DNA of 64,000 nt. It comes from Eledone cirrhosa. Lineage: Eukaryota. The first letter of the stretch is position 1, and each line of letters opens with the position of its first letter. The stretch spans positions 31,620,001-31,684,000 of the forward strand of contig OZ024743.1 in NCBI GenBank assembly GCA_964016885.1, written 5' to 3'. The notes beneath the pieces were generated by a model. That model did not search any database, had not been told where the DNA came from, and worked only from the letters and a program-made list of their open reading frames with translations. Below are positions 140 through 52,172 of this stretch, piece after piece. The position numbers and the translations under genes are program-made.

Positions 140-801
140 AGTTGCATTTATCTTGCTTTATGTTCATACGAGTTATCACCAAGTCACAACCAGTGACCTC
201 AAGAGACAACAAGGTCCGCCATGTTCAAGAAAGAACATACATATTCACACATGCATCTTTAGTGTTTAGACTTGTGATGTACTTATATTGACAGAATCTT
301 CCTTAGTATATGGGCAGTTCCCATTAGTACTATCTTTTGTATTTCTCCTATACGCGGGTTTCCTGGGATTTGCGATATGTAATCATTAGACCCCTTAGGT
401 ATCATTCCCAGAGCGCCTACAACCACTGGTATTGTTTTAGTTCTCAATTTCCACATTTTTCCAATTTCTATCTCCAGGTCCTTATACTTGCTCAACTTTT
501 CAAATGTTTTTATAGATACATTCTTGTCTATTGGAACAGACATATCAATTAGCAGGCATACCCTCTTTTGAAAGTCCTTCAATATTATATCAGGTCTGTT
601 TGCATCTATTTTTCGGTCTGTTTGGATGCTAAAGTTCCACAAGATTGAGATGTGATCTTTTTCAAGTATGGGAGGTGGTTGATGCTCCCACCAATTATTT
701 TGATGGGGCAGGTCAAAATGCTTACACATTATCCAATGTATGTATTGTGCAGCTCTGTCATGCCTGTTTAGGTATTCGGTTGGAGCTATAGGACTGCACA
801 A
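139..801 (-). mobile_element. 5'-truncated R4/Dong-like non-LTR retrotransposon (restriction-like endonuclease domain plus 3' UTR)
   Basis: ORF 283..801 has YLNRHD, RPDII, LLIDMSVP, K..KY.DL and VVGALG, which are PD-(D/E)xK REL motifs of R2/R4-group elements. It terminates in (TAA)n. Confidence 0.85.
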
Positions 802-806
802 TGTTT

Positions 807-860
807 TTAAATTGATAATGCCTTTCCTAGGACATGGGCAGTGCCAGTCAACAGCAAGAG
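807..860 (-). mobile_element. Second, diverged C-terminal remnant of the same R4/Dong-like family
   Basis: Encodes LTGTAHVLGKALSI*, matching LMGTAHILRKILSI* of the neighbouring copy. Confidence 0.6.
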
Positions 861-1828
861 ATAGAGAAAACTATATCTCTTGCAGAGATGGCTTTCCAGG
901 TTTATGGTCCAAATAGTTTTCAGCGCCCTTTTTTTTATCATTCCAAATATGTTGACTATCACAGGCCTTAAGATGCTACGTATTCTCAATTTTAATTGAT
1001 TGATCTTTATAATTACTGAGCTTTCGAAACTCTTTCGAGGAGACGTTTCGATCTGATGGAACGTTCATGTCAGTTAAGAAACGTTTTCTATTTAGGGCCG
1101 TTCAAACTTATAACAGATCTGTTGGACTTGATTGTTCGTTCAGTGTTCACAGGGAAATCCCATGGGATTATCACGTTCTCGCTCCTTATTACTACATCTG
1201 GGTGATGTTCTCTCCGTCTTCAGACCATACGACCTGTACATTAACCTGTGTAAGTATTGCCCCACTCTATCATTCGTCGTTTTATAAGCTTCAAAAGAAA
1301 ACTTTTACCAATTCAAGTTTAAAGTTGTCACGTTCTCTTATGGACACTAAGTGATTTTTTACGACTTACGTTTAAATAAGATAAAATTCATTCTATTGAG
1401 AATACACCTCATAAATCCGGCTAAGGTCCGATCGTCCGAGTCCATAGTTAACATCAACACACCGCCTTAGTTTAGACGGAAAGGGCAGGCAGTTTTCCAT
1501 AGCGAAAGAGGTTGTGTGGTGGATGAGGTTGAAAGTAATGAAAACGGACAGTTTTCTCTTCGGCTAAAACCTTATCACATCGAAAGGAACGTGAGGGTTA
1601 AGAGGGAAGTGCTGCCCCCTAATACATTTAAATTCACATTTGATAATCGATGGTTACATTAATTATGATGAAAATGATGAAGATAAGGATGATTATCACC
1701 ATGATCATTCGCTTGATTACTATCACCTTCGATATACAGGGTCAATGTGATGTTTTATGTATATATATAATGATCCCGTTAAGGGTGAAAGCAGCTATTC
1801 TTTGCTTAAACTTTAATCTGTTATTTTA

Positions 1829-7185: not shown

Positions 7186-7900
7186 GGTATAACCCACCAT
7201 ATAATATGGAGGTGGCCACACCATTATCTAAGATCTTTCTTTCCCTTATTACGAAGCATTTTCCCCTACACATAAATATAGTAAAATTGTTAATAGAAAT
7301 ACTATTAAAATTTCTTACTCTACGACTCCTAACCTTGCACATAACATTACAGCTTCAAATTTAGCTAAACTACCTAGCCGTAGGAACACGTGCAACCCTG
7401 TAGATAGTACTAACTGTAATTGTAGCAATCGGGTTGATTGCCCCCTATCCGGGAAATGCCTCTCTAGTAACATTGTCTACAAATGTAAGGTTGTAACACC
7501 CATGTCCCGTAGGGCCTACATAGGGTTAACCGCCAATAGATTCAAGCAACGTCTTTACATGCATACCCATTCTTTTCGTTACCCTCTAAGAAGGAATATG
7601 ACGTCTCTTTCAGCTTATATCTGGAGTCTAAAAGACAACCACACCCAATATAATTTACACTGGGAGATCCTAGCTAGGGCTAGGTCGTATAACGGAAATA
7701 AAAGACCATGTGACCTCTGCGCCGCTGAGGCCCTGGAAATACTCTACGCCACAGACCACATCTTAAACAAAAAATCTGAGGCAATTTCGGCTTGTAAACA
7801 TAAATTGCACAACACTTTCCTGTATTACAGCCCCACGTTATACCCTAACGGATAGTACGATCTATACGTGGAGATTTTACGTCTTGATGTGGGAGCTAAT
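7186..7900 (+). mobile_element. Penelope-like element 3' fragment (Cys-rich linker and GIY-YIG endonuclease)
   Basis: KIVNRNTIKISYS, CNCSNRVDCPLSGKC, IVYKC...YIGLT, FKQR..H, LSAYIW, CDLC..E and LNKKSE motifs. ORF 7502..7855. Confidence 0.9.
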
Positions 7901-30673: not shown

Positions 30674-30901
30674 AATTTCTTTATTAGCCACAAGGACACA
30701 AAAGAAGGGGACAAATACAAATGAGGAGTTTACATACAGGTATATGAAAATAAAACTATTAATACAATAACAAATAACAATTAAAATCCCTAATAGGGGG
30801 GAGGTGTTACACAGGTGTTGTACACATCCCGAAAAAATGTACAACCCTCATCTCCAGGAGCACCAAGAGTGAGTACTCCCTTCCTCTCTTCCACTTTTTC
30901 C

Positions 30902-33900
30902 TCAACCTACAGGCTTATATAGAGACAAGGCCCAACCACTCGGGCCATCTTTGCCACATTCACCCACCTTTTATAAAATTTGCTGGGGTACAGCACCTCT
31001 CTCTCCATCCTGATTCTTCTTCCAAAATAATATTTGAAAAAACGAATCAGTTGCTCTCCAGAGAGAAAGGTCTGACCTCAGCCCTTTTAACCTCGTCCAC
31101 CATATAACCTCTTTCACCAGAGCCATAACACATAGGAATACCGCCTCTCCCTCGTTTTTGAAGGAGGGTGGGAGTTTGATCATGACAATGGACTCGGTGG
31201 TCAACTGGATTGGTCCCACCCGCGACAATAGTCGTTCTACATAGCCCCACAGGTCAGTAACGACCGGGAAGTGTACGAATGCGTGTGCGACGGTTTCCTC
31301 GTCGCGCACGCATCTTGGACAGATCTTTTTCGAAGGGTCCCTACCCGGGCGCCCGTGTCTGTAGAGCTTGTCTCGAACTGGTAGAGCTTCTCGGTAGCAC
31401 TGCCAGGCCAGGGATTTTTGGAAGTTGTCCATTGGTCCCGGGCGGAAGGTCCTACCGAACAGACTGGCCAGTTCGTCCTCCTCTACGCCTAGAGATTCTC
31501 CGAGCGTGTCGTCGCACTTGCTGCGGACCAACCCTCTATAGAATGTCGAAGTTGAGTCTCCACTGATCGCCGGGTCCGTTTGCCAGAGGACTGTGAGCGC
31601 CTGAGCACATTCGATGTGCCAGTCGCCCATATTCCTCGGTCTTTGTTTGACTCAGGACTGCAGCTCGGTCAGCGAGACGAGTCGTGGGAAAGCTCGCCTC
31701 ACGAACGGGGCCCACACCGGTTGTCTGGTGAGGAATACGTGGAGGTGCAGCAGCCTGAGCGCGTGTTTGCGCGTGGTCAGGGACGGCATCCCCAGTCTTC
31801 CGTTTGAAGGGTGTTGGCAGCAGATGGATCTTCTCACCAAAGGAGCCCGTTTCTTCCAAACGAATTGGAAGAGAGCGCCCTCCATTTTGGTGAGCGTTTT
31901 GGCTGGACAAGGCACGACGGTCAAGCGGTAGTAGATGACGGACGCTATAAAAGTGTTCGCCACGCCCGCTCGACCTTTCAATGATAGTTTGCACTCGGCC
32001 CACTTCTGGGTGAGCGCAAACACCTTGGCCGTCACCTCGTTCCAGTTCTTCTCCACCTAGAGATCCGGACCAAACCAGACCCCGAGCAGCTTTACCGGTC
32101 CTTCCGTCCAGGGTCCGACGAAGTCATCGGATGGCATCGGTTTGCCTCTCCACGTTCCGAGTTGCAAACCGACGGATTTGTCCCGGTTCAGCTTCGTTCC
32201 TGTGAACCGTTCGTATTCCTCCAGTAAGGTTCCGATCTCCCCGATTTGCGAGGTGCTCGACACCACTACTGTCACGTCGCAGTCCCGGTTCTAAAGTGAT
32301 GCCCTGCAATAGCTCCAACTTCCGCAGTAGTGGCTCGAGCGTCAGTACGTACAAAAGGGAGGAGAGAGGGCATCCCTGTCGGATGGATCGCGTGATATGG
32401 AACGGCTCGGAGAGGTAGCCGTTCATCTTGACCCTTGAGCAGAAGTTGTTGCTGTGCATTGCAGCAATCCAGCCCCTGAACACGCCTCGAGCACCGCATC
32501 CAGGTAATGATGGTAAACCCTATCGAAAGCCTTAGACTGATCTAAGTTGATCAGGGCTCCACCGAAGCCGGGTTTACACCCTACCCTCTCTATGATGTAT
32601 CGCATGAGGAGGAGGTTGTCGTGTATGGACCTGGTCGGGATTGCGCATGTCTGCGCTTCTCCCACCAGGTTTTCGACGACAAGCGCCAGCCTCTTACCAA
32701 CACCTTGGCCAAAATCTGTAACTCTGTGTTGAGCAGAGTTATGGGCCGGAAGTTACCTATGTCATCCACCTTGTTCTTGTCCCCCCTGACTAACATGGTT
32801 GCGCCTTTGGTCACAGAACTGGGAATTCTCCCGTTCTGCTGCCAGTTGCAGTAGACCGCTTCCAGGAGACCGGAGAACAAGTCCGGCATTGTTACGTAAA
32901 ATTCGCAGGGGAGACCGTCGAGACCTGGAGATATGCGTTTGCCGCATTAGCTCAGCGCATACTCTATCTCAGCGGCCGAAATCGGCCTTTCGCAGAACTT
33001 ATCCTCGCTCTCAGAGAGTCGCTGTAGGCCGTCGAGGTATGAACCAAAATCTATAGCCCCTCCCGGCGCGCCGCCCTGCCCGAACAGTTGAGAAAAAATG
33101 CCGCCGAAAGGCCGCGCATATTTGCTTGACGTATCACGCGTCCGTATTGGTCCTCCAAAGACCGAATCGTGGACTTGTTGCCACTTTTCGGCTCCGTCAC
33201 TCGGGCCCAGCTAACAACTTTGGCTCCCTCGTTTCCCAGAGCACGTATTTTGCTTCTGACAACGCAGCCTTCATGCTTTGCGTCGAATAACTGGTCTAAG
33301 GCCGTTCTCGTCGCTAGCACGCTGGCTACGTTTCCACTCCTAAGTGCCTCTTCTACTTTATCTACCAGTTTCTTTTCGGTCTTATTTCTATCTAACACTA
33401 ATACTTTACTAAAACCTATCGAGTCTAATCTAACTGCCCTCTTGAGAGAGTACCACCATCTGTTGTTGACAATGGCCCCCGCCAAGTGTTGCTTAACTAA
33501 AGTGCTAATCCGTCTACTCTAGGCTTTGTATGCCGGTAACGACAAGTTCAGCTTCCAGTAGCCAGGTCCCTGTCTATGGATTTTGTCAAGGTTGACTATG
33601 CAGCTCACTAATTTGTGGTCTGATTAGGCAACCATGAACATTTGTGGACAGCTTAACATGTCCCTGTCCTTCTTTCTAACTAGAAGCTTATCTAGGTACG
33701 ATCTAGATGTTCCGCCAAGATTAGTCCACGTCCACAGTTGCACAGTCGGAAAATCTAGTCGATATCTATCGGCCAGGTCAAATCGGTCGATTAACTGTTT
33801 GAGGCTGTTACATCCCCCTCTATCGGGACATGCTCCCACATATTCTCAACGTGCATCTAGGATTCCATTCCAGTCCCCCACTAACAGCAGGTAGCGGGAC

Positions 33901-34295
33901 GTTCCCAGAAAAGTCTCTACACGTTTGAAGATGTATGGCCGCGGTGTCCCGGATGGGGCATATGCGGTCGCCAGCCTGAAGGCTCCACCTTCACTACCGC
34001 CAACGTCTAGGACCACCATTCGACCCTCCGGGTCCAGGTGTACCGTCTGTGTTACGAGGTCCAGGTGTTTCCGCAGCAAAACAGCATCCCCACCCCCACC
34101 TCCCGGCTGACAGAGAGATGCGTAGATCTCAAAGTCGTCGAAGATGGGGGTCAGTTGTCGATCGCTGTGGATCCTGGACTCGCAAATGGCTACTACATTC
34201 ATACTGTGCGACCTGAGGTTGTTTAAGTGTTTGCCCTGTTTCCAGGGCATTCCCAGGCCGCGTACATTCACACATCCAACTCTAATATTGGCCAT
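30902..34295 (-). pseudogene. Element 1 ORF2 (APE endonuclease, reverse transcriptase, C-terminal zinc knuckle), disrupted
   Basis: VNVRGL, GDWN, WTW, YLD, FRPITLLN, LDQSKAFDRV, RQGCPLS, CPRC...H. The YADD segment is deleted near 32280. Several frameshifts. Confidence 0.93.
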
Positions 34296-34302
34296 GTTGG
34301 TG

Positions 34303-34339
34303 CTGAAAAGTTAAAAGAAGAAGAAAAGAAATCACTCAC
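34303..34339 (-). other. Candidate 37-nt GT-AG intron at the ORF1/ORF2 junction of element 1
   Basis: AAG|GTGAGTgatttcttttcttcttcttttaacttttCAG|CACCAACATG. Confidence 0.5.
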
Positions 34340-36265
34340 CTTTTCGTCTCCTGAGGACCAGGCTGCACAATTTACATGGGGGTGTTGGAAGGTATGTTTG
34401 GTGGTGGTTTCTGGCGGGGTGGGGACGGAGGTGTTTGGTGGGGAGGTGTTGTCTGGTGGGATGGGGATGACATGGGTGGAGGTGCCTATGGTGGGGAAGC
34501 CTTTGAAGGGGACGCAGTTGATTGGTTTCACGCAGGAATTCACCACGTCCTCTACAAATGTTTCTTTTAGGGATCTATAAGTTCCTATAGGGACCCTGAT
34601 CAGTTTTAGGTTCATGTTTTTTTGTTTTTGTTGGAGCTATCCAAAGTTTTCCCTTCGGTTTTGACCAAAGGGTTGTTTCTGATGGTCTCCATCAGTGTTC
34701 TATTTTCTTCGTTTATGTAAGTGTATGTGTACTTTTCCTGTGTTGTGTTTGTTTTTGTCTGTGGTTCCTGCGTGTGTTTTCTCTTTGTTGTGGGTGTTTT
34801 GTTTTCGGGAGGGGGAACTTTTGTTTGTGATGTTTGTGCTGTTTGTGCTGGTGTTTGTGTGTTTCTTTCGTTTTTGTTCATGCGGTGCTTTTTTTTTTTT
34901 ATTTTCACGGGTTGGAAGGGTTCCTCCTCGTCGCTGCTGGGTGCCGTCGATAGTGGTTCCTCATCCGTGTTGATGGGTAGGGGTATGTTTTGGGGTTCTA
35001 TAGTGTCTGTGTGTGTTTTTGTATTTGTTTTGGGTGGGGAGGGGTTGGGTGGGATAGTGTTCTCTGTTGTTATTTCTTGTTGTCGTGGTGGTGGTGGTGG
35101 TTGTGTTGTTATTTGTGGTGTGGGTAAAAGTGGTTTTCTTTTTGTCAATTGAGGATAGGCAGCCCTTAGGTGACCTCTGCTTGCGCAGTGGTAACATGCG
35201 GGCCGCCTACCCTCAACCGAAATGTTTATGTAGGTCTGTCCATCCAGAGGTACTCTTTGGAGGATTTTCATTATACGTTCTGGGCTCATCTGCACCAGAA
35301 TTTGGACGCTAGTCCAACTAAATATATCTCTGGAGGATTTCCCTACTGAGATCAAAATGTCTTGTTCAAAGTCAATTAGGCCATAAAGTATCCACCAAAT
35401 ATCTACTTTGGGTCTTATGCATGTAATTTTTATTTTTTGCGTTCTTTTTCCCATGTATGTAGGGAAAAATGTAAAATGGGTGGACACAATGGGCGCGATG
35501 GAATATTTTTGTGCTGTTATGTTGTCTTTCATCAGCACCGAGATGCTGCCGAAAAGTTTGGCTTTCTGAATGAATAAAATGTTATCCATGTGGTTCCTTA
35601 AAACCAGCTCAATGTCACTCTGAGAAAGTTGAGCTGGTCTTTTTGATGTATTTGAGATTGTCCTGAAAACCACCGTGTTCAGGGCATTCTCTCTCTTTAG
35701 TTCTTGTGGTGAATTTATGCTAAATGATCCATTGGGTCCAAAAGACAAATATTGTTTAGCTTCTTCCAACTTTTGTTTCGCGTTGGTTAAATCCAAAAGT
35801 TGAAATATTTCCGTTTTGTTTTACTGTATCAGCAAAAGAAATGTTGCTGTTGTTGTCTTTTTTGTTGTAGTTATCACTGTTGTTTGTATTTTCTTTGGTG
35901 TTTGTGTTGACATTTTTTCCCTTTTGATTAGTATTGTTGGATGTGGTTTAAATTTTTTCATTTTCTGTATTTTTTGGTGTCTGTTGTGGGCTGTTATTTT
36001 CATTTTTTGTTGTGTGAATTTCCATTTCTTTACGAAAAGAAGTATTTGCAACATATATTTCCTTCTGTGTGTGGATACATGTGACGTTTGTGACGTCAGA
36101 CGTGTTCAGTTGCTTACAAGAAGCTGAAGCTTGGTCACCTTCTAAATGTTGAGGCGGTGATGTGGGCCTTCCTTTGTCCATGTCTGCTACTACCTGCTGG
36201 TCAAGTAGGCATGTCTTTCCCTTCCCATCTTCTTGCTTTGGCAAAGAAGTAGGTGCTTCGGCCAT
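34335..36265 (-). pseudogene. Element 1 ORF1 (gag-like, CCHC knuckle), frameshifted
   Basis: ISVEGRRPACYHCASRGHL aligns with ISVEGKRPKCFRCGSKTHL of element 2. Pieces: 35948-36265, 34612-35796, 34268-34615. Confidence 0.88.
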
Positions 36266-36384
36266 TTAAAAAAAAAATGAAGTGTTTTGCAAAAATATTT
36301 TCGAAGATATTTTGGATGTTTTTGCCCTGAGGGGCACGATATTTTGGAGGACTGACCAGATCAACATTTGACGTGTCAGTCCCT

Positions 36385-43412: not shown

Positions 43413-44301
43413 TATATGTATGTATCCATACACGCTTTCTTTGTTTTGCAACATACTCACTGATTCATTAAATATTGTAAATTCAATATGAGTAAAGAGA
43501 TTATTTCGGATATTTTGGTCTTGATTTGCTTTTGTGAGTCGCGAGTTCATTTAGTTGAACCTTTCATTCATTATTTCAATTCTGCTAAATAACTTTGATA
43601 ATAAACTAACGCTATCATTATCCATAATGAATGCATAATCAAATTTATTAGAAACATTTTCGTTGCTAATGATTGATTTTCTCTACACGGAGGATATAGA
43701 TGGATTAAATATTAAATAAATTTTCGAATACACAATAAGTAATAGTTTGCCTATTTTTTTCTTTTTGCGCTGAAATACCGATAAACTCCAGAACAACGAC
43801 AAAGAAATCATTATCATATTTTGAGTATGATGTGTTTATCTTGCTCTGTCGGATTGTGCATTGCCTCGAAGTTAAATAGAAATTAGTTGAACTAGATTCA
43901 TACACACCCATAATTCTCACTACTACTATGGCAACTGTGGCCTTATTTTCTAAAGAGATGATACAGATAAATCTGTTGGCATTGATATTAGTGGAGGGAT
44001 GACGTTACTGTCGACCTTTTGTATTCAAATTTTGAGTCGCTGCCCCGTGACCACTCCGTATTGCTAAACGCTTCTAGTCGTGAAAATGAACATAGTCCAA
44101 ATATTTAGGCCTTCGCTTTCTCCTTGGAGAATGAATAGCAAGTTATTATGGGATCCCTTTTTTTCCGTGGACAATGTATGCCGCCATATTAGCAGTTTGT
44201 AACAAAAATACTTTCAAAAATGATTATTCAAAAAACTTAAAACACACAAAAACACTTACGGAGTGATGTGTACATACGTTTCGAGAGACTCAACAGAAAA
44301 G

Positions 44302-44375
<74 letters not shown>
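44302..44375. repeat. (AAT)n at the 3' junction of Tx1 element 2
   Basis: About 24 perfect units abutting the element end. Confidence 0.95.
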
Positions 44376-44377
<2 letters not shown>

Positions 44378-44599
44378 TTTCTTTATTAACCACAAGGGTT
44401 TACATAAAGTAGACATTAAGGACAGTGCAGGACAATACAGGGCGGTACAAATGGGCATTTCTGCGTGTAAAAAAACAGAAAAAAGAGGGTGTAACAAAAA
44501 ATAACAATGAAAAATTCCCCAATAGGGGGGAGACTTCGGAGGGACATTTGTGGAGAAAGCCCAGTAAAAAGCCACAATGACCCTGACCACCAAGGCAAG

Positions 44600-47500
44600 T
44601 GTCCTCTCCCACAGATATATACTCAGAGTAGGCCCATTCACTTGGGTCATTCTTGCTTCTCTCACCCATCTTTCAACAAAATGCTGGGAAGAGAGCACTT
44701 CCCTCTCTACTCTGATTTTCCTTTTCAAATGAAATTTGAAAAAGTCAATCAGAGCATCACCGAAGAGGTAAGTGCTCGTCTTCAGCCATTTCAAACGTGT
44801 CCACCATACTATCTCTTTCGGCATGGCCACCAGACAGATAAAAACTGCCTGCCCTTCCCGGCTAAAGGAGGAGGGCGGGGCAATCCTCACGATGGACTCA
44901 GATGATAGCCGGATCCGTCCTAAACGCGACAGCAGGTGTTCGACATAAACCCACAAGTCAGCAATTTTCGGACACTGGACGAGTGCGTGCAGGACGGTTT
45001 CGTCGCCCTGTACGCATCTCGGACATGCCCGGCTGACGGCACCTCCATGCCTGTAGAGTTTATCCCGAACTAGCAAGGCTCCTCGGTAGCACTGCCAGGC
45101 CAGAGATTTCTGGAAGTTGTCCATAGGCCCTGGCCCGAAAGTTCTTCCGAAGAGATTGGCTAGTTGATTTTCGACGACGCCTAGAGTTTCCCCAAGTACG
45201 TCGTCGCTCTTCCCCTCCACTAATCCTCTATAGATCGCCGAGGTGGAGTTTCCACCGATCACATTGCCCGATTGGTCGAGGGCTGTGAGCGCCTGAAGAC
45301 ATTCCAGTATCCAGGCGCTCCCTCTCGGTCTTCGCTTGACCCAGGACTGCAGCTCCGTCAAGGAAACGACCTGGGGAAATACGTGTCTAGCAAACGGCGA
45401 CCACACCTGATCACCGTCGAGGAAGAGGTGGAGATGTCGTAGCCTGAGCGCGTGCCTGCGCATCATCAGCCACGGCATGCCCAGCCCTCCACGTAGCGGG
45501 TGTTGACAACAGATGGACCGCCTGACCATCGGAGCGCGTCCCTTCCACAAAAAGCGAAAGAGCAAACGCTCCACCGCAGTCAGGCGAGGCTTAGGACAAG
45601 GTACGACGGTCAGGCGGTAGCACATGACAGACGCGATGTACGCGTTAGCCACCTCCGTCGACCTTTCAGGGATAGCTTCCTCTCCGCCCATTTCTGGGTG
45701 AGAGAAGCCACCCTGCTCGTCACCTCGTCCCAGTTTTTTGTCCGTCTGGAGGTCCGGACCGAACCAGACCCCTAGCAATTTAACAGGTCCGTCCGTCCAG
45801 CGTCCGACGACGCTGTTGGACGGCATGGACCTGCCTCTCCAGGTGCCGATCTGTAGGCCCACTGACTTTTCCTGGTTGATCATTGCTACTGTCACCGCTT
45901 CGTATTCTCTTAGTGTAGTGCCGATCGCCTCTATGTGTTTGGCGTTCGACACCACTACGGTGACATCGTCCGCATATGCTGACACGGATCTTCCGCATCC
46001 TAGTTCGCGCGGGACTCCCCTCAACGTCTCCAGTTTGTGCAGTAATGGCTCGAGAGTCAATACGTACAAGAGGGACGAGAGGGGACATCCTTGGCGGACC
46101 GAGCGCATGATGTTGAACGGTTCCGACAGGTGACCGTTCACTCTCACCACAGAGCAGATGTCGCTGTGCATGGCAGCGATCCAGCCTCTGAAGACGGGCC
46201 CAAAGCCAGCCGCCCCCAGAACTGCCGCTAGGTAAAGATGGTCGACCCTATCGAAAGCTTTCGACTGATCTAAATTGATCAAGGACCCACCCGTGCCAGG
46301 TTCCTTAGCTACCCTCTCTATGATGTATCGCATGAGGTGGAGGTTGTCGTGGATGGATCTGTCGGGATTGGCGCATGTCTGCGCCTCTCCCACCAGACCA
46401 CCAACGACAAGCGCCAACCTCTTTGCTAGCACCTTGGCCAAAATCTTGAACTCTGTGTTTAGCAGAGTTATGGGCCGGAAATTATCTATGTTACCCCCCT
46501 TGTTCGGATCCTTTCTCAGCAGTGCCACCGCTCCTCGGCTCACAGAACTGGGAATTCTCCCGTTCTGTTGCCAGTTGCAGTAGACGTCCACCAAGAGGCC
46601 TCCGAACAATCTGGCATCTGTACGTAAAGTTCATAGGGCAGACCATCCAAACCAGGCGATTTACCCCTTGTGCCGCCAGTCATTGCCTCCCTTACTTCAG
46701 CGGTTGTTATCGGCTTTTCGCAACACTTCGCCTCAGTGGCCGAGAGCCCCGGCAGTCCGACGAGGTAGACACTAAAGTCCATCCCTCTACCCGGCCCACC
46801 ACTGCCCCCGAACAGCTGAGCGAAGTGTCGCTGAAAAGCTTCACACATTTGCCCGGGATCGAGTAGCATGCGCCCGTCGTGGTCCACCAAAGACCGGATC
46901 GTGGCTTTGTTGCCACGACGCGCCTCCGCCACTCGGGCCCATTGAACGGCTTTCGTCCCCTCGTGGCTGAGAGCACGCACCCTTGCTCTGACAACGCAGC
47001 CTTCGTGCTTTGCATTGAAGAATTGGTCAAGGGCCAATTTCGCCGCAAGCACGTCGGTCGCAATGCCTTTGCTAAGCGCCTCGTCTAATTTTCTAACTAG
47101 TTCTCCCTCTGCTCTATTTTTCTCTATTGCTAAAGCCTTACTAAACCTAATCGATTCTATTCTAATCGCTCTTTTCAGAGCAAACCACCACTTGTTGTTG
47201 ACGATGGTCCCCGTCAACGCCCTCTTAACTAGTTCGCTAATCCGGTCTCTGTAGGCCTTGCGCGCTGGTAAGGACGCGTTTAGCTTCCAGTAGCCGGGTC
47301 CTCGTCTATGAAGCCTATCTAAGTCAAGCACACAGATCACGAATTTGTGGTCCGTGTAGCTGACTATCTTGAATTGTGGACAGCCTATGCTAGACCTATC
47401 TATTTCCCTACAAAATACTCTATCTAGATATGATCTGGATGACCCTATGCGATTTGTCCAAGTCCACATTGGCGCATTCGGGAAATCCAATCGGTACCTG

Positions 47501-48027
47501 TCAGACAGTTCAAAAAGCCTGAGCAGGTTGGTGAGGCTTTTGCACCCTCCACCCATATCCGCTAATCCCACACAGTCCCAGCGTGCATCTAAGATCCCGT
47601 TCCAGTCGCCCACTAACACTAAAGAGCGGGACGTTCCAAGAAAGGTCTCCAGACGCCGGAAGAAATCAGGCCGCCCTGCTCCTGTCGGGGCATAGACGGC
47701 CACTAGCCTGAAAGCTTGCCCGTCTCCGCTGGTCACGTCCAGCACCACCAGCTTACCCTCTGGGTCCAGGAAGATGGCCCGTATGGCGAGATCCAAACCT
47801 CTCCGAAAAAGCACAGCAACTCCTCCCCCCGATCCAGGACCGCTGGGAGATGCGTACACATCGTAGCCGCCGAAGATCGGTGCGAAGGCCCGTGCTTCGG
47901 AGATTCTGGTCTCGCTGATGGCCACTACATCTATGTTTAGTGACCTGAGGTCGTTGAGCAGGTGACCCTGCTTCCATGACGACCCCAAGCCACGCGCATT
48001 TATGCTGCCTATTCTGAGTGAGGTCAT
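44600..48027 (-). pseudogene. Element 2 ORF2 (APE endonuclease, RT with YADD, CCHC)
   Basis: INARGL, ISET, GDWN, TDH, SPGLDGLP, FRPITLLN, KAFDRV, RQGCPLS, YADD, CPRC..H..C. Frameshift near 46610 and a compensating pair near 45735/45660. The true C-terminal end is approximate. Confidence 0.95.
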
Positions 48028-48065
48028 GTTTAAAATAGAGTGGAAAAATGGGAAACACCACTTAC
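48014..48065 (-). other. Candidate 52-nt GT-AG intron at the ORF1/ORF2 junction of element 2
   Basis: CG|GTAAGTggtgtttcccatttttccactctattttaaacatgacctcactCAG|A. The donor contains the ORF1 TAA stop. Confidence 0.5.
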
Positions 48066-50160
48066 CGTACTTTTGGTAGAGGAGGGATGGTTTTTACATC
48101 CCTTTTCACTTGATCGTCTGGCGAAGAGACCGTTGAATCGTCCTTTCGGCTGGTCGTCGGCTCTTCTAAGAGAATGTCTGAATATACTCTTCGATTGATA
48201 GTTCCTCCTAGGTCCCTGAAATCACCAACTGCGTTGGGGAATTTCGTTTTAATGTTCGTGTATTGTTTCTGTGCTGTTTTTAGCAGTTTTATGTTAGTTG
48301 GCGTTTTGATTGGTGCTGGTATTATGTAGTCGTGTTGTGAAATGTCTGTGTGTTCAATTATGTAAGTCATTAGTTTCTTGTTGTGTGTATTTATTGCCGT
48401 GCATTTGTTTTTCTGGGGGTGGGGTGTGGTTCTGCTATTTTCTTGTCGTTGTTGCTGGGTGTGTGTGTTTTGTTGTTGTGTTTGCGATGTTGGTGCTTGT
48501 GGTGGTGGTGTTGAAGGTGTTGTTGGCGGTGGGGTTGTCGCCGGTGGTGACGGTGGTGCTAGTGTGGGTGGTGATGGTGTTGATGGTGTTGCTGCTGTGG
48601 GTCTCTTTGCAGTAGACTTTACCCTTTTCTCATTTCTTTCCCCCCTTTTCAAAGGCGACGATGCGCTGCTTCTGCGTTTGTGCCTTCTTACGACATTTTG
48701 CCATCTCTCTCCCACCTCACACTCCATGTCTGATTCTGTGAGGTCGGGGAGGGGTACCAGCTCCACTCTTTCACTTGTTGTTGGTGGTGATGTTTGCACT
48801 GGAGTCTCTGTTGCAACTGCATTTGGTATTGCTGTTTTTGTTGTTAATATTTCCACTGCTGCTGCTGCTTTTGATTTCCGTGGCGTGGGTATGGGTCCCA
48901 CAGATCTATCGTTCCTCGTTGCCGCTTGTCCTGTTGCTGGTAGCCGTGGAGCCGGTTTCGGAAGGAGGGGGGTTTCTCCTTTCTCAGGGTCTTTTCGTTG
49001 CAGAAGGCCCTGAGGTGAGTCTTCGATCCACAGCGAAAGCATTTCGGGCGTTTTCCTTCAACACTTATGGGCAGTTGAGTGCCGTTATCGAAGTATATCA
49101 CATCCGGGATAGCTTCGATGCACTCCTGGTTGGTTTGGATTAGCATCTCAATGGAGGTGCCGACCCAATCTTCTCTTACTTTTTTCTGTACTTGCAGTAC
49201 AGTTGTTTTGTCCTCGATTCCGACGAGGACAGACGCGGCCAGCCAAGAAGGGGCCATCCCGGGGGGGACGTGGGTCAGTTTGACCCTCACAATTTTTTGC
49301 CCGCAGTAGGAGGGCACCAACACCATTTCCTCGCTCCTTAGGGTCACTAAGGATTGTGCCTTTGCCTCCTGGGGTGTGGCAAAAAGTACGTCTACGGTGG
49401 CATATTTTTTTCCTCTGGTGATGTGCGTTTTCCGCTGCCACACAGACCCCAAGGCTTTTTGTATTTGAGCCTCTGTGGCTCTTTCCACCCTACGGGATTT
49501 TGTACTTACTGTACGGTACGTGACCGTACAGTGCTGTTGGGTTTCGAAAAATGTTTCCGCTGCCTTGTAGATTGCTCGGTGTCCAGTCTTTGTCACCATC
49601 TAATTCGCTTCCTCTAATTCCTCATTTGTTATCAGGATTGTTTCCAAGTTTTTCGCAATACCTGCAAATGAGATTGGTTTTTCTTTGCTGCTGTTGTTGT
49701 TGTTGTCAGAGCTGCTGTTACTTTTGTTGTTGCTGCAGGTACTACGACTACTGCCTCCGCCGCTGTTGCTGTGGTTGTTGTTGGTGTTGCTGCTGCTAAT
49801 GCTGTTGTTGTTTATGCTGTTGGTGATGCTGTTGCGGCTGCTACTGTTGTTTTCATTGTCACTGTTGCTGTTGTTATTACGGCTGCTACTGCTATTATTC
49901 CTGACGTCAGACGAATGACCTGGGTTTTCGTATTTCCCGCACACCTGTTTCGTCGTTGTCGTCGTCGTCGTGGAGAAATCTTGCACGCTTTGCACGAGAC
50001 TTTTCTTTTCTGTCGTCGCTTTCGAAAGAGAAGGGAGGGAGAGAGACACATTTAAAGAAGGGAGGGAGAGAGACAATCTTCTCTCTGCTGTAGTGACGAT
50101 TGAGGAAGAAGAAGACGGAATGAGTGGGAGTGACCTATAAAAATTCTTTTTCGTAGCCAT
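48062..50160 (-). pseudogene. Element 2 ORF1 (low-complexity N-terminus, CCHC knuckle, Pro/Thr-rich region)
   Basis: Starts MATKK. One nonsense codon at 49600-49602 and a frameshift near 49000. CFRCGSKTHLRAFC knuckle. Confidence 0.9.
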
Positions 50161-50278
50161 GTTGTTTTTTTGTTTAAAATAAATATTGGGCACAAAACCC
50201 CAATAAGCAGTTATTTAACCCCGAAGGGCCAAATAACGGGCAGAAAGACCCCTCTCACGATGAGGAGGGTGTTTTTGT

Positions 50279-50340
50279 CTACAAGTTGGTTAAAGTTTTA
50301 AACAATTTACAATTGTTATAGCGGTCAAAATTTACAATAC
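50279..50340 (-). other. Candidate 62-nt GT-AG intron in the 5' UTR of element 2
   Basis: CAG|GTATTG...ctttaaccaacttgTAG|, starting about 35 nt from the 5' end. The acceptor end is nearly identical to that of element 1. Confidence 0.5.
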
Positions 50341-50375
50341 CTGACAGAGCCGAGCCTCCGTCAACCATAGCATTC

Positions 50376-50491
<116 letters not shown>

Positions 50492-52172
50492 GGAGAAAAG
50501 AGGAAGGGGAAGGACACTTATATCATTATAAGTGCCATGAAAACAGACATATTTGTCATATGGCACTGGCAAAGGAAATGCGTGTTATTCTCCTTATAAA
50601 ATATAATTCACCGTACCCATATTACATTTACCTATTATGAGAGGAATTATCATGCAATAAAGCATTCAAATAATTTTATATTTGCAAACAGGCATTACTC
50701 ATAAATGTCACATTTGGAAAAGCCTTATTTAAAATGAAGAATAAATATCTCACTACGCTAACAGTCCGGATGAACAACATAAAGATAAAGTATCACTGTA
50801 TAAATATCTCATAGTACGCAGAAATGTATAATGTGTGTCTGTGTGTGTGTGTACGTGAGTGTACGTGTGTGAATGTGTGTGCGTCTAAGTGTATGAGTGA
50901 CTGTTTGAACATGTGTGTGGTGTATGTGTGTGTGAATGTGTGTCATATGTGAGTGTAAGTGTGCCAGTGTGTCGGTGTGAGTGTGTGCGTATCTGTGTCA
51001 GTGTGTCAGTGGGACTGTGTGTGTGTCAGTGTGTCAGTATGAGTGTGTGTGTATGTGTGTGAAACGATATAATCTGCAATCTTCCTTGTTTAAAAATTCT
51101 GCATTTTGCTCAGTTGCTGACAGACGTCAATGTTAGAGCGCAATCAAGATATAAATGTAGTGCACATATCTCAAACACTGCTTGCACATACGCACACAAA
51201 CAGATGCACAGATGCTATGGAAAACATTCACACATCTTCAGTCATTCACCAACATGCAGACACTCAGAATTAGGAGAAACTAGATGAATGCAAGTGCACA
51301 AAAATGCCATTATAGCTGCCGTACAGCATCAGTATTGCACATTAGCAATAACCAATGTCCTTATAACGATACAACTAACGATGACAACGAATACGATAGA
51401 TGTGAAGGACTGTACGTGTATAGTTTTCCATTCACTGTCGCCGGTATGTGTCGAGATTCAGCATAAAAAAAATATTTCGAGGTGACAAATCAATCCAATA
51501 TATATACGTGTGTGTGTGTATTATACATAAATATGCGTGTGTATGTGTGTGTATGTGTGCGTGTGTGCGTGTGTGTGTGTGTATTATATATATATATATA
51601 ATTATATTTAAGAGAAGTAAACAAGATAAGGAAAAAAGAATTTACCTATATATTTTGATATCCAGACTACTTTTTTTATCTTTTTTACTTTTCCCAAATG
51701 CAATTATATTACGCTCTGATAGATTGATTTTTATTAATTCCATCAGTGAGCAAAACTGGTATTGGTTGGACTCCCTCATATATACTTGTGTATAAATCTA
51801 TATATACACGCACATATATAACGAAGGAAGTGTGATAAGTAACCAGGTGGACCATAACGCACCAAAGTACTCGATACTGGGTAGTAGAGTGGGTAATAGG
51901 AGTTCAGACCTAGCTGCCAAAACGGCCGGAGCTCAGCCGTCGGGGTTCTGACTCTTTTCCTATACACACCCACACACACAAACATATACATATATATATG
52001 ATATTTGGAAATTCTGCTTCGGAGAAGCGATCGAGACGTACCTGAGGATCTTGCGATTTCAGAGTCAGGTTCGATCATTGCATCGATCGTGCCTCGAGCT
52101 GGTCGCCAAAGAAACGAATGTAATATGTCTAATACATTCTATTCGTCGCAACAGTGTTTCTCTGTTTCTTAT

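Follow-up and report, generated by a model that had tools for sequence, protein, structure and literature searches.

Does a consensus 5' splice site that contains the stop codon of a retrotransposon's first open reading frame make an intron? The question is raised by one LINE in the window, by which we mean the whole 64,000-nucleotide stretch of Eledone cirrhosa DNA analysed here (assembly GCA_964016885.1, contig OZ024743.1, positions 31,620,001 to 31,684,000, forward strand). On the minus strand, ORF1 of this element (element 2) ends ...PKVR with CG|G TAA GT, the G of the donor being at 48065, and the original prediction was that removal of a short intron from this point would fuse ORF1 to ORF2 and that regulated splicing might control ORF2 expression. 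As a reading of the letters this was correct: a GTAAGT donor takes in the ORF1 stop, and the AG that follows (ending at 48014, within the Arg codon AGA, codon 5 of ORF2) would join ORF2 in frame, both sites being in phase 2. However, a perfect donor followed by a pyrimidine tract and an AG does not by itself make an intron, and this architecture probably has some function other than the short intron proposed. We tentatively prefer, at not quite an even chance, a reading in which the donor sits in one arm of a predicted RNA helix that loops out ORF2 and is likely masked in the full-length RNA.

Element 2 (50376-44378, minus strand) lies between (TAA)n-type repeats and is a full-length, broken copy of a young 6-kb two-ORF LINE of the L1/Tx1 type, assigned to family F2a. 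Near-identical copies number in the thousands in the 3.0-Gb genome, many with an intact ORF2, and the junction region of the window copy is ∼98% identical to that of other copies. ORF1 (48062..50160) carries a zinc-knuckle motif and encodes 698 amino acids in the intact copy L092, whereas ORF1 of the window copy is broken twice, by a stop codon in frame at 49600-49602 and by a frameshift near 48975. ORF2 (44612..48027) begins at its own ATG and encodes endonuclease, reverse transcriptase (RT) and zf-RVT domains, 1139 amino acids in intact copies; here it has a frameshift near 46610 and its stop codon is deleted. The window copy is dead on account of these lesions, the last of them a 19-nt deletion. 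An AATAAA (44382..44387) stands just 5' of the repeat tail.

The class of the element is itself ordinary. The ORF2 product exceeds the cut-offs of PF03372 and PF00078, and PF13966 scores 27.4 bits in L092 against a cut-off of 27.5, and 32.1 bits in the window copy. Among solved proteins the closest to ORF2p is human L1 ORF2p (E 3e-52, residues 5-854), with R2 matching over the RT only (E 2e-21). Two ORFs, an N-terminal APE endonuclease with RT and a C-terminal zinc-binding motif, and the greater proximity to L1 than to R2 place it among the L1/Tx1-type APE LINEs. The label “Tx1” rests on the domain layout and on microsatellite targets, the relatives in the tree being all unnamed and at 21-39% identity. 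The nearest named protein fragments come from Octopus sinensis and Argonauta hians, which points to an octopod as the probable host; no close relative was found in metagenome contigs, and no Rfam match at E<=1 over 44200-50500. Copies end in, or are placed between, (TAA)n- or (TCTA)n-type repeats, a target preference judged by eye and uncounted. Head-to-tail copies ∼5.8-6 kb apart, sometimes of mixed families, also occur within (TAA)n or (TCTA)n repeats (G000:C1:26572911-26593603, C1:4225251-4255774 and C1:55433175-55453278), which suggests repeated insertion into the same microsatellite. An Octopus sinensis tectonic-3-like protein model (P0001) carries ∼60 residues of the element's endonuclease at its N-terminus, at 64% identity, through exonisation of part of an element or else as an artefact of annotation. 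Elsewhere in the window, ORF fragments at 283-870 (minus strand) and 7232-7855 (plus strand) resemble the C-termini of other retroelements (an RTE/R2-like end and a Penelope GIY-YIG-like domain); a Pfam search of the two fragments gave no match.

Endonuclease starts were counted in the genome with a degenerate pattern blind to the spacer, which gave 10,646 matches (control 12). Copies fetched from the first listed places were sorted by hand into 21 junction types, 19 of them with a locatable 3' end and each represented by one copy. ORF2 identity among the first 17 families is 68-96%. Within family F2, GTAAGT is kept at 28 and the AG at all 30 of the best-matching loci (the top 30 of 40 scored, from 1,393 candidates). 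The spacer is 53 nt long in 29 of these 30; the 52 nt originally described hold for the window copy, whose spacer has a 1-nt deletion and one substitution. All 17 F2 copies that are open from the zinc knuckle to the donor (37 examined, setting aside loci L211-L276, which were picked for donor mutations) have the donor in phase 2, and phase 2 is thus no artefact of the broken window copy.

The donor is not confined to this family. Nor is it a chance occurrence: a strict donor motif is present at the junction in 17/17 families and, over 94,260 sense bases, at just 5 other places, and when the ∼270 GTs of each element are ranked by pairing with the host's own U1 gene, the junction donor comes first in 15 families and second in 2. 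It forms 7-9 consecutive or near-consecutive pairs with U1, as expected of a 5' splice site. Every one of the 21 junction types has G|GTR, located 25-52 nt upstream of the ORF2 start, and 20 have the full consensus, the sole exception being the type of L177 and L311 with GTAATT. In the 19 families, columns -1, +1, +2, +5 and +6 are invariant and +3 and +4 are purines, whereas four-fold sites of ORF2 are invariant in only 11/74 columns; this invariance is qualified by the L177/L311 exception and by the fact that the representatives' donors were located by consensus. The original prediction implied that donor, acceptor and phase would be conserved together. The donor is; its phase is not, being 2 in 13 families, 1 in 4 and 0 in 2, as read from intact ORF1 copies in F2a, F3c, F6, F12, F1b, F8c, F10 and F11 and, in the remainder (F8a uncertain), from the ME(I/V) motif conserved at the C-terminus. 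Judged from these alignments the donor is real and under selection, well beyond the one family in which it was first noticed, and it is probably a U1 site. Poly(A) hexamers just downstream of it are not conserved across families. U1 snRNA genes stand in tandem arrays that repeat every 2,674 bp (G000:C1128 and C2:180973544-180995099), and the locus L311 (G000:C1:57845900-57852300) combines an L177-type 5' junction with an F2-type 3' UTR start, possibly as a recombinant or a nested pair.

Family by family, the end of ORF1, the donor and the pyrimidine-rich spacer are complementary to the first part of the 3' UTR, at a distance of 3.4 kb. The 3' partner is a purine tract directly after the ORF2 stop, and the two arms change together. 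The predicted core helix has 26-42 bp and -27 to -51 kcal/mol, reaching -93 in longer windows. In most families the innermost pairs are between the CC just before the ORF2 start codon and the G of the stop with the next G, so that the loop of the helix would be ORF2 itself. Outwards, pairing extends across the donor into the last ORF1 codons; all six donor bases are paired in F2, F6, F9, F11 and F19 and only the flanks in the others, with positions +2 to +4 looping out in some families. In element 2 the inter-ORF spacer (48028..48059) corresponds to the core of the 5' arm, the donor hexamer (48060..48065) is fully paired in the family's predicted helix, and the last ∼15 ORF1 codons (48066..48110) form the outer part of the arm as predicted in L092. 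The pyrimidine tract that was originally noted after the donor is present, and pairing with the 3' UTR offers an alternative explanation for it. Of the 3' arm the window copy keeps a remnant (44594..44611), namely the outer purine tract and the anti-donor stretch, since the 19-nt deletion took the inner half together with the ORF2 stop; the residual duplex has -24.0 kcal/mol. The window contains a second example in element 1 (30675-36300, minus strand), an older broken copy of family F1a, with a GTGAGT donor (34339-34334) and spacer (34296..34339) and with the ORF2 stop TAG and an intact 3' arm (30860..30909); its predicted duplex has -38.3 kcal/mol and the donor is fully paired. Ahead of the AATAAA, the 3' UTRs of all families further contain a TTTAC...GTAAA stem and two or three hairpins that look conserved, candidates for recognition by ORF2p.

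Several lines of evidence support this helix. Between the spacer and the post-stop window of 17 families, own partners reach -26.8 kcal/mol and swapped partners -21.9, with 0/100,000 permutations equalling this and 1/100,000 when each group is represented by one family; these values overstate independence because the families share ancestry. With 88 windows of ORF2 as controls (sd 1.1, minimum -3.3), the own partner has z = -5.5, and the donor-flanking part is likewise partner-specific (0/100,000). When a 60-nt arm was scanned along the element, the post-stop window was the best partner in 19/22 copies and the second best in 2, and net of local folding the own-partner duplex has -27.7 versus -13.6. 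The sense-strand duplex is stronger than the antisense one in 20/22. The helix arises unprompted in 9 of 12 whole-RNA folds (3.4-3.8 kb) and is absent from the other 3. Double changes, found at 10/20 pairs in the F2/F8/F11 clade (clade B; 1/200 permutations reach that), are clear there and weak in clade A, whose poor 12-family alignment covers 10 pairs only, with 1 double change. In F19, a family found afterwards, the predicted duplexes have -32 and -35 kcal/mol, the best of ∼1,100 windows.

However, the results should be read with the composition of the arms in mind. Pairing between pyrimidine and purine tracts is promiscuous. No more than 3/17 rows of the core test and 7/19 of a further one have the own partner in sole first place, and some foreign partners beat that of F19. 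The core windows of F6 and F12 fail to beat their shuffles (65 and 40 of 300). Part of the 3' arm can form a local hairpin instead, so that two folds would compete. These tests cover the junction types with a matching 3' end, that is, all but L177/L311 and L315. Among 13 distant L1/Tx1-like elements (metagenome contigs, 21-29% identity; 13 usable out of 80, the other 67 lacking intact ORF2 and flanks) there was no top-ranked consensus donor (best rank 2 of 268) and no helix (ranks 74-360; permutation 34,197 of 50,000). Taken together, the modelling makes it very probable that the helix is real, and points to a well-supported and apparently undescribed RNA architecture.

At the level of sequence, then, we see a donor conserved in any phase, a spacer complementary to the 3' UTR start, and a register that would put the ORF2 start beside the ORF2 stop. 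On the model that we prefer, at not quite an even chance, U1 snRNP would bind the donor on the nascent RNA, guard that RNA against early termination and hold unfinished RNA in the nucleus. Once transcribed, the 3' UTR would pair in vivo over the donor and spacer across 3.4 kb, so that only full-length, unspliced RNA would be released. A donor left open during ORF2 transcription and hidden as soon as the 3' UTR exists would offer its protection first, and the penalty would be lifted only for complete RNAs. The same fold would bring the ORF1 stop near the 3' end and blunt nonsense-mediated decay, and ORF2p would be made from the unspliced RNA by reinitiation at its own start codon. A more far-reaching version, possible but on balance unlikely, makes of these parts a built-in checkpoint for full-length RNA, in which the pairing ends both splicing and retention and the closed ORF2 loop, with its start brought to its stop, controls the translation of ORF2. 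Reinitiation fits two observations. The ORF2 frame relative to ORF1 is free, taking all three values and differing even between the sister subfamilies F2a and F2b, and an AAC-ATG-type start context of ORF2 is kept. Precedents for the separate steps can be found in the literature. An unused donor in unspliced RNA blocks export and 3' processing and retains the RNA in the nucleus (PMC4380460); U1 at the end of gag protects the full-length EVD RNA (PMC5580714); fold-back of the poly(A) tail or 3' UTR, by shortening the distance from stop to 3' end, suppresses nonsense-mediated decay in reporters (PMC2689704); and reinitiation has been proposed for ORF2 entry in SART1 and L1 (PMC5972666).

The main rival, which we consider unlikely, is a splice that skips ORF2. 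The donor would be joined to an AG that coincides with the ORF2 stop or closely follows it, yielding an ORF1-only mRNA comparable to the gag-only RNA of Ty1/copia elements, and the helix, in competition with acceptor recognition, would set the ratio. A donor at the very end of ORF1 in any phase would suit such a splice, and 17/17 families have an AG at 0-7 nt from the ORF2 stop, followed by a purine-rich, enhancer-like tract. After the join, reading in the family's own phase meets a stop within 4 codons in 11/17 cases, versus 7/34 for the other phases; an apparent covariation of donor phase with the stop after the distal AG was discarded as confounded by phylogeny and purine richness. Since the product would make no ORF2p, an absence of genomic copies is what cis preference predicts. 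However, the G of the TAG is a predicted helix pair, which accounts for the TAG without an acceptor, and of the four triplets made of T and two purines three are stops. Family F2 has TAA as its stop, the join in L092 reads on without a stop, and the upstream pyrimidine content is just 56-81%. No ORF1-to-3' UTR join was present among 6 and 40 matches in searches that set aside F1b, F8, F10, F11 and F19; one odd match, L292, proved to be a short match running into unrelated sequence. By eye, a U-rich tract ending in CAG at 44461..44473 could serve element 2 as a distal acceptor; no such tract was seen at this place in the other 3' UTRs listed, and in no genomic copy is the donor joined to it.

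Quite unlikely, in our estimate, is that the helix acts in translation, in RNA stability or in template recognition by ORF2p, with the donor-like motif kept for a reason other than U1, such as a protein or DNA-level factor site. That the helix encloses exactly the interval from the end of ORF1 to the ORF2 stop would agree with such a role, as would the suppression of nonsense-mediated decay by poly(A)-tail fold-back (PMC2689704), and one donor of human L1 is kept through overlap with a RUNX3 site (PMC5860796). The pattern of variation speaks for U1: across the 19 families +3 and +4 vary only between A and G while the other scored positions are fixed, which is what U1 pairing tolerates.

The original prediction itself, in which the 52/53-nt spacer is spliced out and the in-frame fusion of ORF1 and ORF2 supplies ORF2p, we now regard as very unlikely. 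In its favor, the donor is strong, the join is in frame in F2 and in 11/19 families, and the fusion would keep the V-R-I-G-S-I-N first strand. The coincidence is largely expected, because strong donor hexamers all hold a phase-2 stop and because AGR is common at conserved Arg columns of ORF2 (18/30). In 8/19 families the first AG is out of frame with the donor, the two thus failing to share a phase, and among them are young families in which one and the same copy has both ORFs intact, namely F1b (L131), F8c (L306, L309) and F10 (L171); F10 is without any in-frame AG ahead of the catalytic Asn. Since the phase varies and intact families are out of frame, selection acts on the donor as an RNA or DNA signal and not on a fusion. 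ORF2, moreover, keeps its own ATG and start context, and no use of the AG at 48014..48015 was seen. The would-be introns are 28-61 nt long, 37-42 nt in several abundant families, against 50-90 nt for the usual shortest animal introns (PMC13644364); a figure for molluscs was not found in the literature.

Genomic copies bear on the same point. Owing to the cis preference of LINEs, a spliced RNA that encodes ORF2p and keeps its 3' end should be copied into the genome. A search for intron-less F2 copies by their flanking motifs found 0 at gaps of 0-12 nt and 2,045 unspliced ones at gaps of 40-62 nt, gaps of 13-39 nt lying outside it. A degenerate exon end (F1a, F3, F6, F12 and F17-type, leaving aside F1b, F8, F10, F11 and F19) gave 0 against 3,297 unspliced; the single candidate beside these was an insertion and not a splice. 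In 75 F2 copies the exon end is followed by a base other than G; no acceptor is joined in any of them, and by reading they are substitutions, deletions or unrelated sequence. No fused protein appeared among 8,000 longer candidates, a weak test, or among the 3 matches of a protein search. In contigs of four runs, of unrecorded kind, none of 15 joints is at the proposed donor or acceptor and pieces cross the spacer unspliced; as contigs drop rare variants, we give this no weight as evidence. By comparison, rare splicing of human L1 still leaves ∼2% spliced genomic copies (PMC5860796). There is one loophole: splicing removes the 5' arm, and if the helix is needed for copying, a spliced RNA would leave no genomic trace. 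Occasional splicing may occur in family 2, but regulated in-frame splicing as the route to ORF2p is unsupported.

Least credible of the readings that we scored is recoding, with the helix as an ADAR substrate or as a pause signal for readthrough or frameshifting from ORF1 into ORF2. A long imperfect duplex does cover the stop, with its A's opposite C's in several families, in F6 and F12 the two ORFs share a frame and are parted by a single TAG, and F10 has no ATG at its ORF2 start. The free relative frame, differing even between F2a and F2b, stands against it, and no canonical slippery heptamer was seen by eye before the F2 stop. F10 (L171, L174, L189; G000:C1:11261600-11267900 and others) is a family both young and abundant, its ORF1 of 613 codons and its ORF2 of 1145 codons being intact, in which ORF2 starts with an ATA overlapping the ORF1 TAG and the first in-frame ATG is codon 35, past the catalytic Asn; entry may be by AUA reinitiation, by a -1 slip at the stop or by A-to-I editing to AUG. 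Back-splicing and a conserved frameshift or readthrough were rejected because motif and frame vary.

Our preferred reading remains the masked donor in the ORF2-enclosing helix. Two-ORF LINEs face three problems, namely how to keep the RNA unspliced, how to escape nonsense-mediated decay at the ORF1 stop and how to ration ORF2p. In a single genome with at least 10,646 endonuclease starts, some twenty diverged families suggest that one compact structure bears on all of them. The compensatory variants that nature provides lend the architecture to a direct test in a reporter. If true, the checkpoint would be a kind of RNA switch that has yet to be described in any non-LTR retrotransposon.

The elements resemble other two-ORF LINEs of the Tx1/L1 clade (Tx1L, Kibi, Koshi; human L1) in having an ORF2 with APE endonuclease, RT and zf-RVT, in a short inter-ORF spacer (63 nt in L1), and, as in Kibi and Koshi, in insertion into microsatellites (PMC4494074). 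The consensus donor at the end of ORF1 and the helix around ORF2 set them apart, having been found neither in the 13 distant elements nor, for any LINE, in the literature searched, on which subscription papers, Repbase Reports and supplements may bear; the matching passage of an Octopus vulgaris repeat paper makes no mention of splicing or ORF1 (PMC13282606). SART1, human L1 and the calicivirus TURBS reach ORF2 from an unspliced bicistronic RNA, as the present elements would; RNA structure matters in SART1, and termination-reinitiation systems tolerate non-AUG starts, as F10 would need. Their signals are described as local to the stop and start, whereas here the partner is 3.4 kb off (PMC5972666). 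The SpIREs of human L1 also involve a conserved, rarely used donor within a LINE, for which the authors suggest sequestration in RNA structure, but that donor lies in the 5' UTR, overlaps the RUNX3 site and leaves its ∼2% of spliced copies (PMC5860796), against none found here.

The nonsense-mediated decay fold-back (PMC2689704), nuclear retention (PMC4380460) and the retroviral PTBP1 element, in which a pyrimidine tract after a stop can protect RNA (PMC4764554), supply separate steps of the model, although they come from human cells, reporters and cellular or retroviral RNAs and do not form one natural LINE switch. A close parallel is Arabidopsis EVD, a Ty1-copia element in which a conserved U1 site ending the structural gene also works without splicing and shields the full-length RNA from early termination. 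EVD, however, is an LTR element whose intron is demonstrably spliced and coupled to a nearby poly(A) site (PMC5580714). In elements of the type of element 2 we found neither a spliced product nor a poly(A) site conserved downstream of the donor, and what is predicted instead is a masking of the donor by the element's own 3' UTR.
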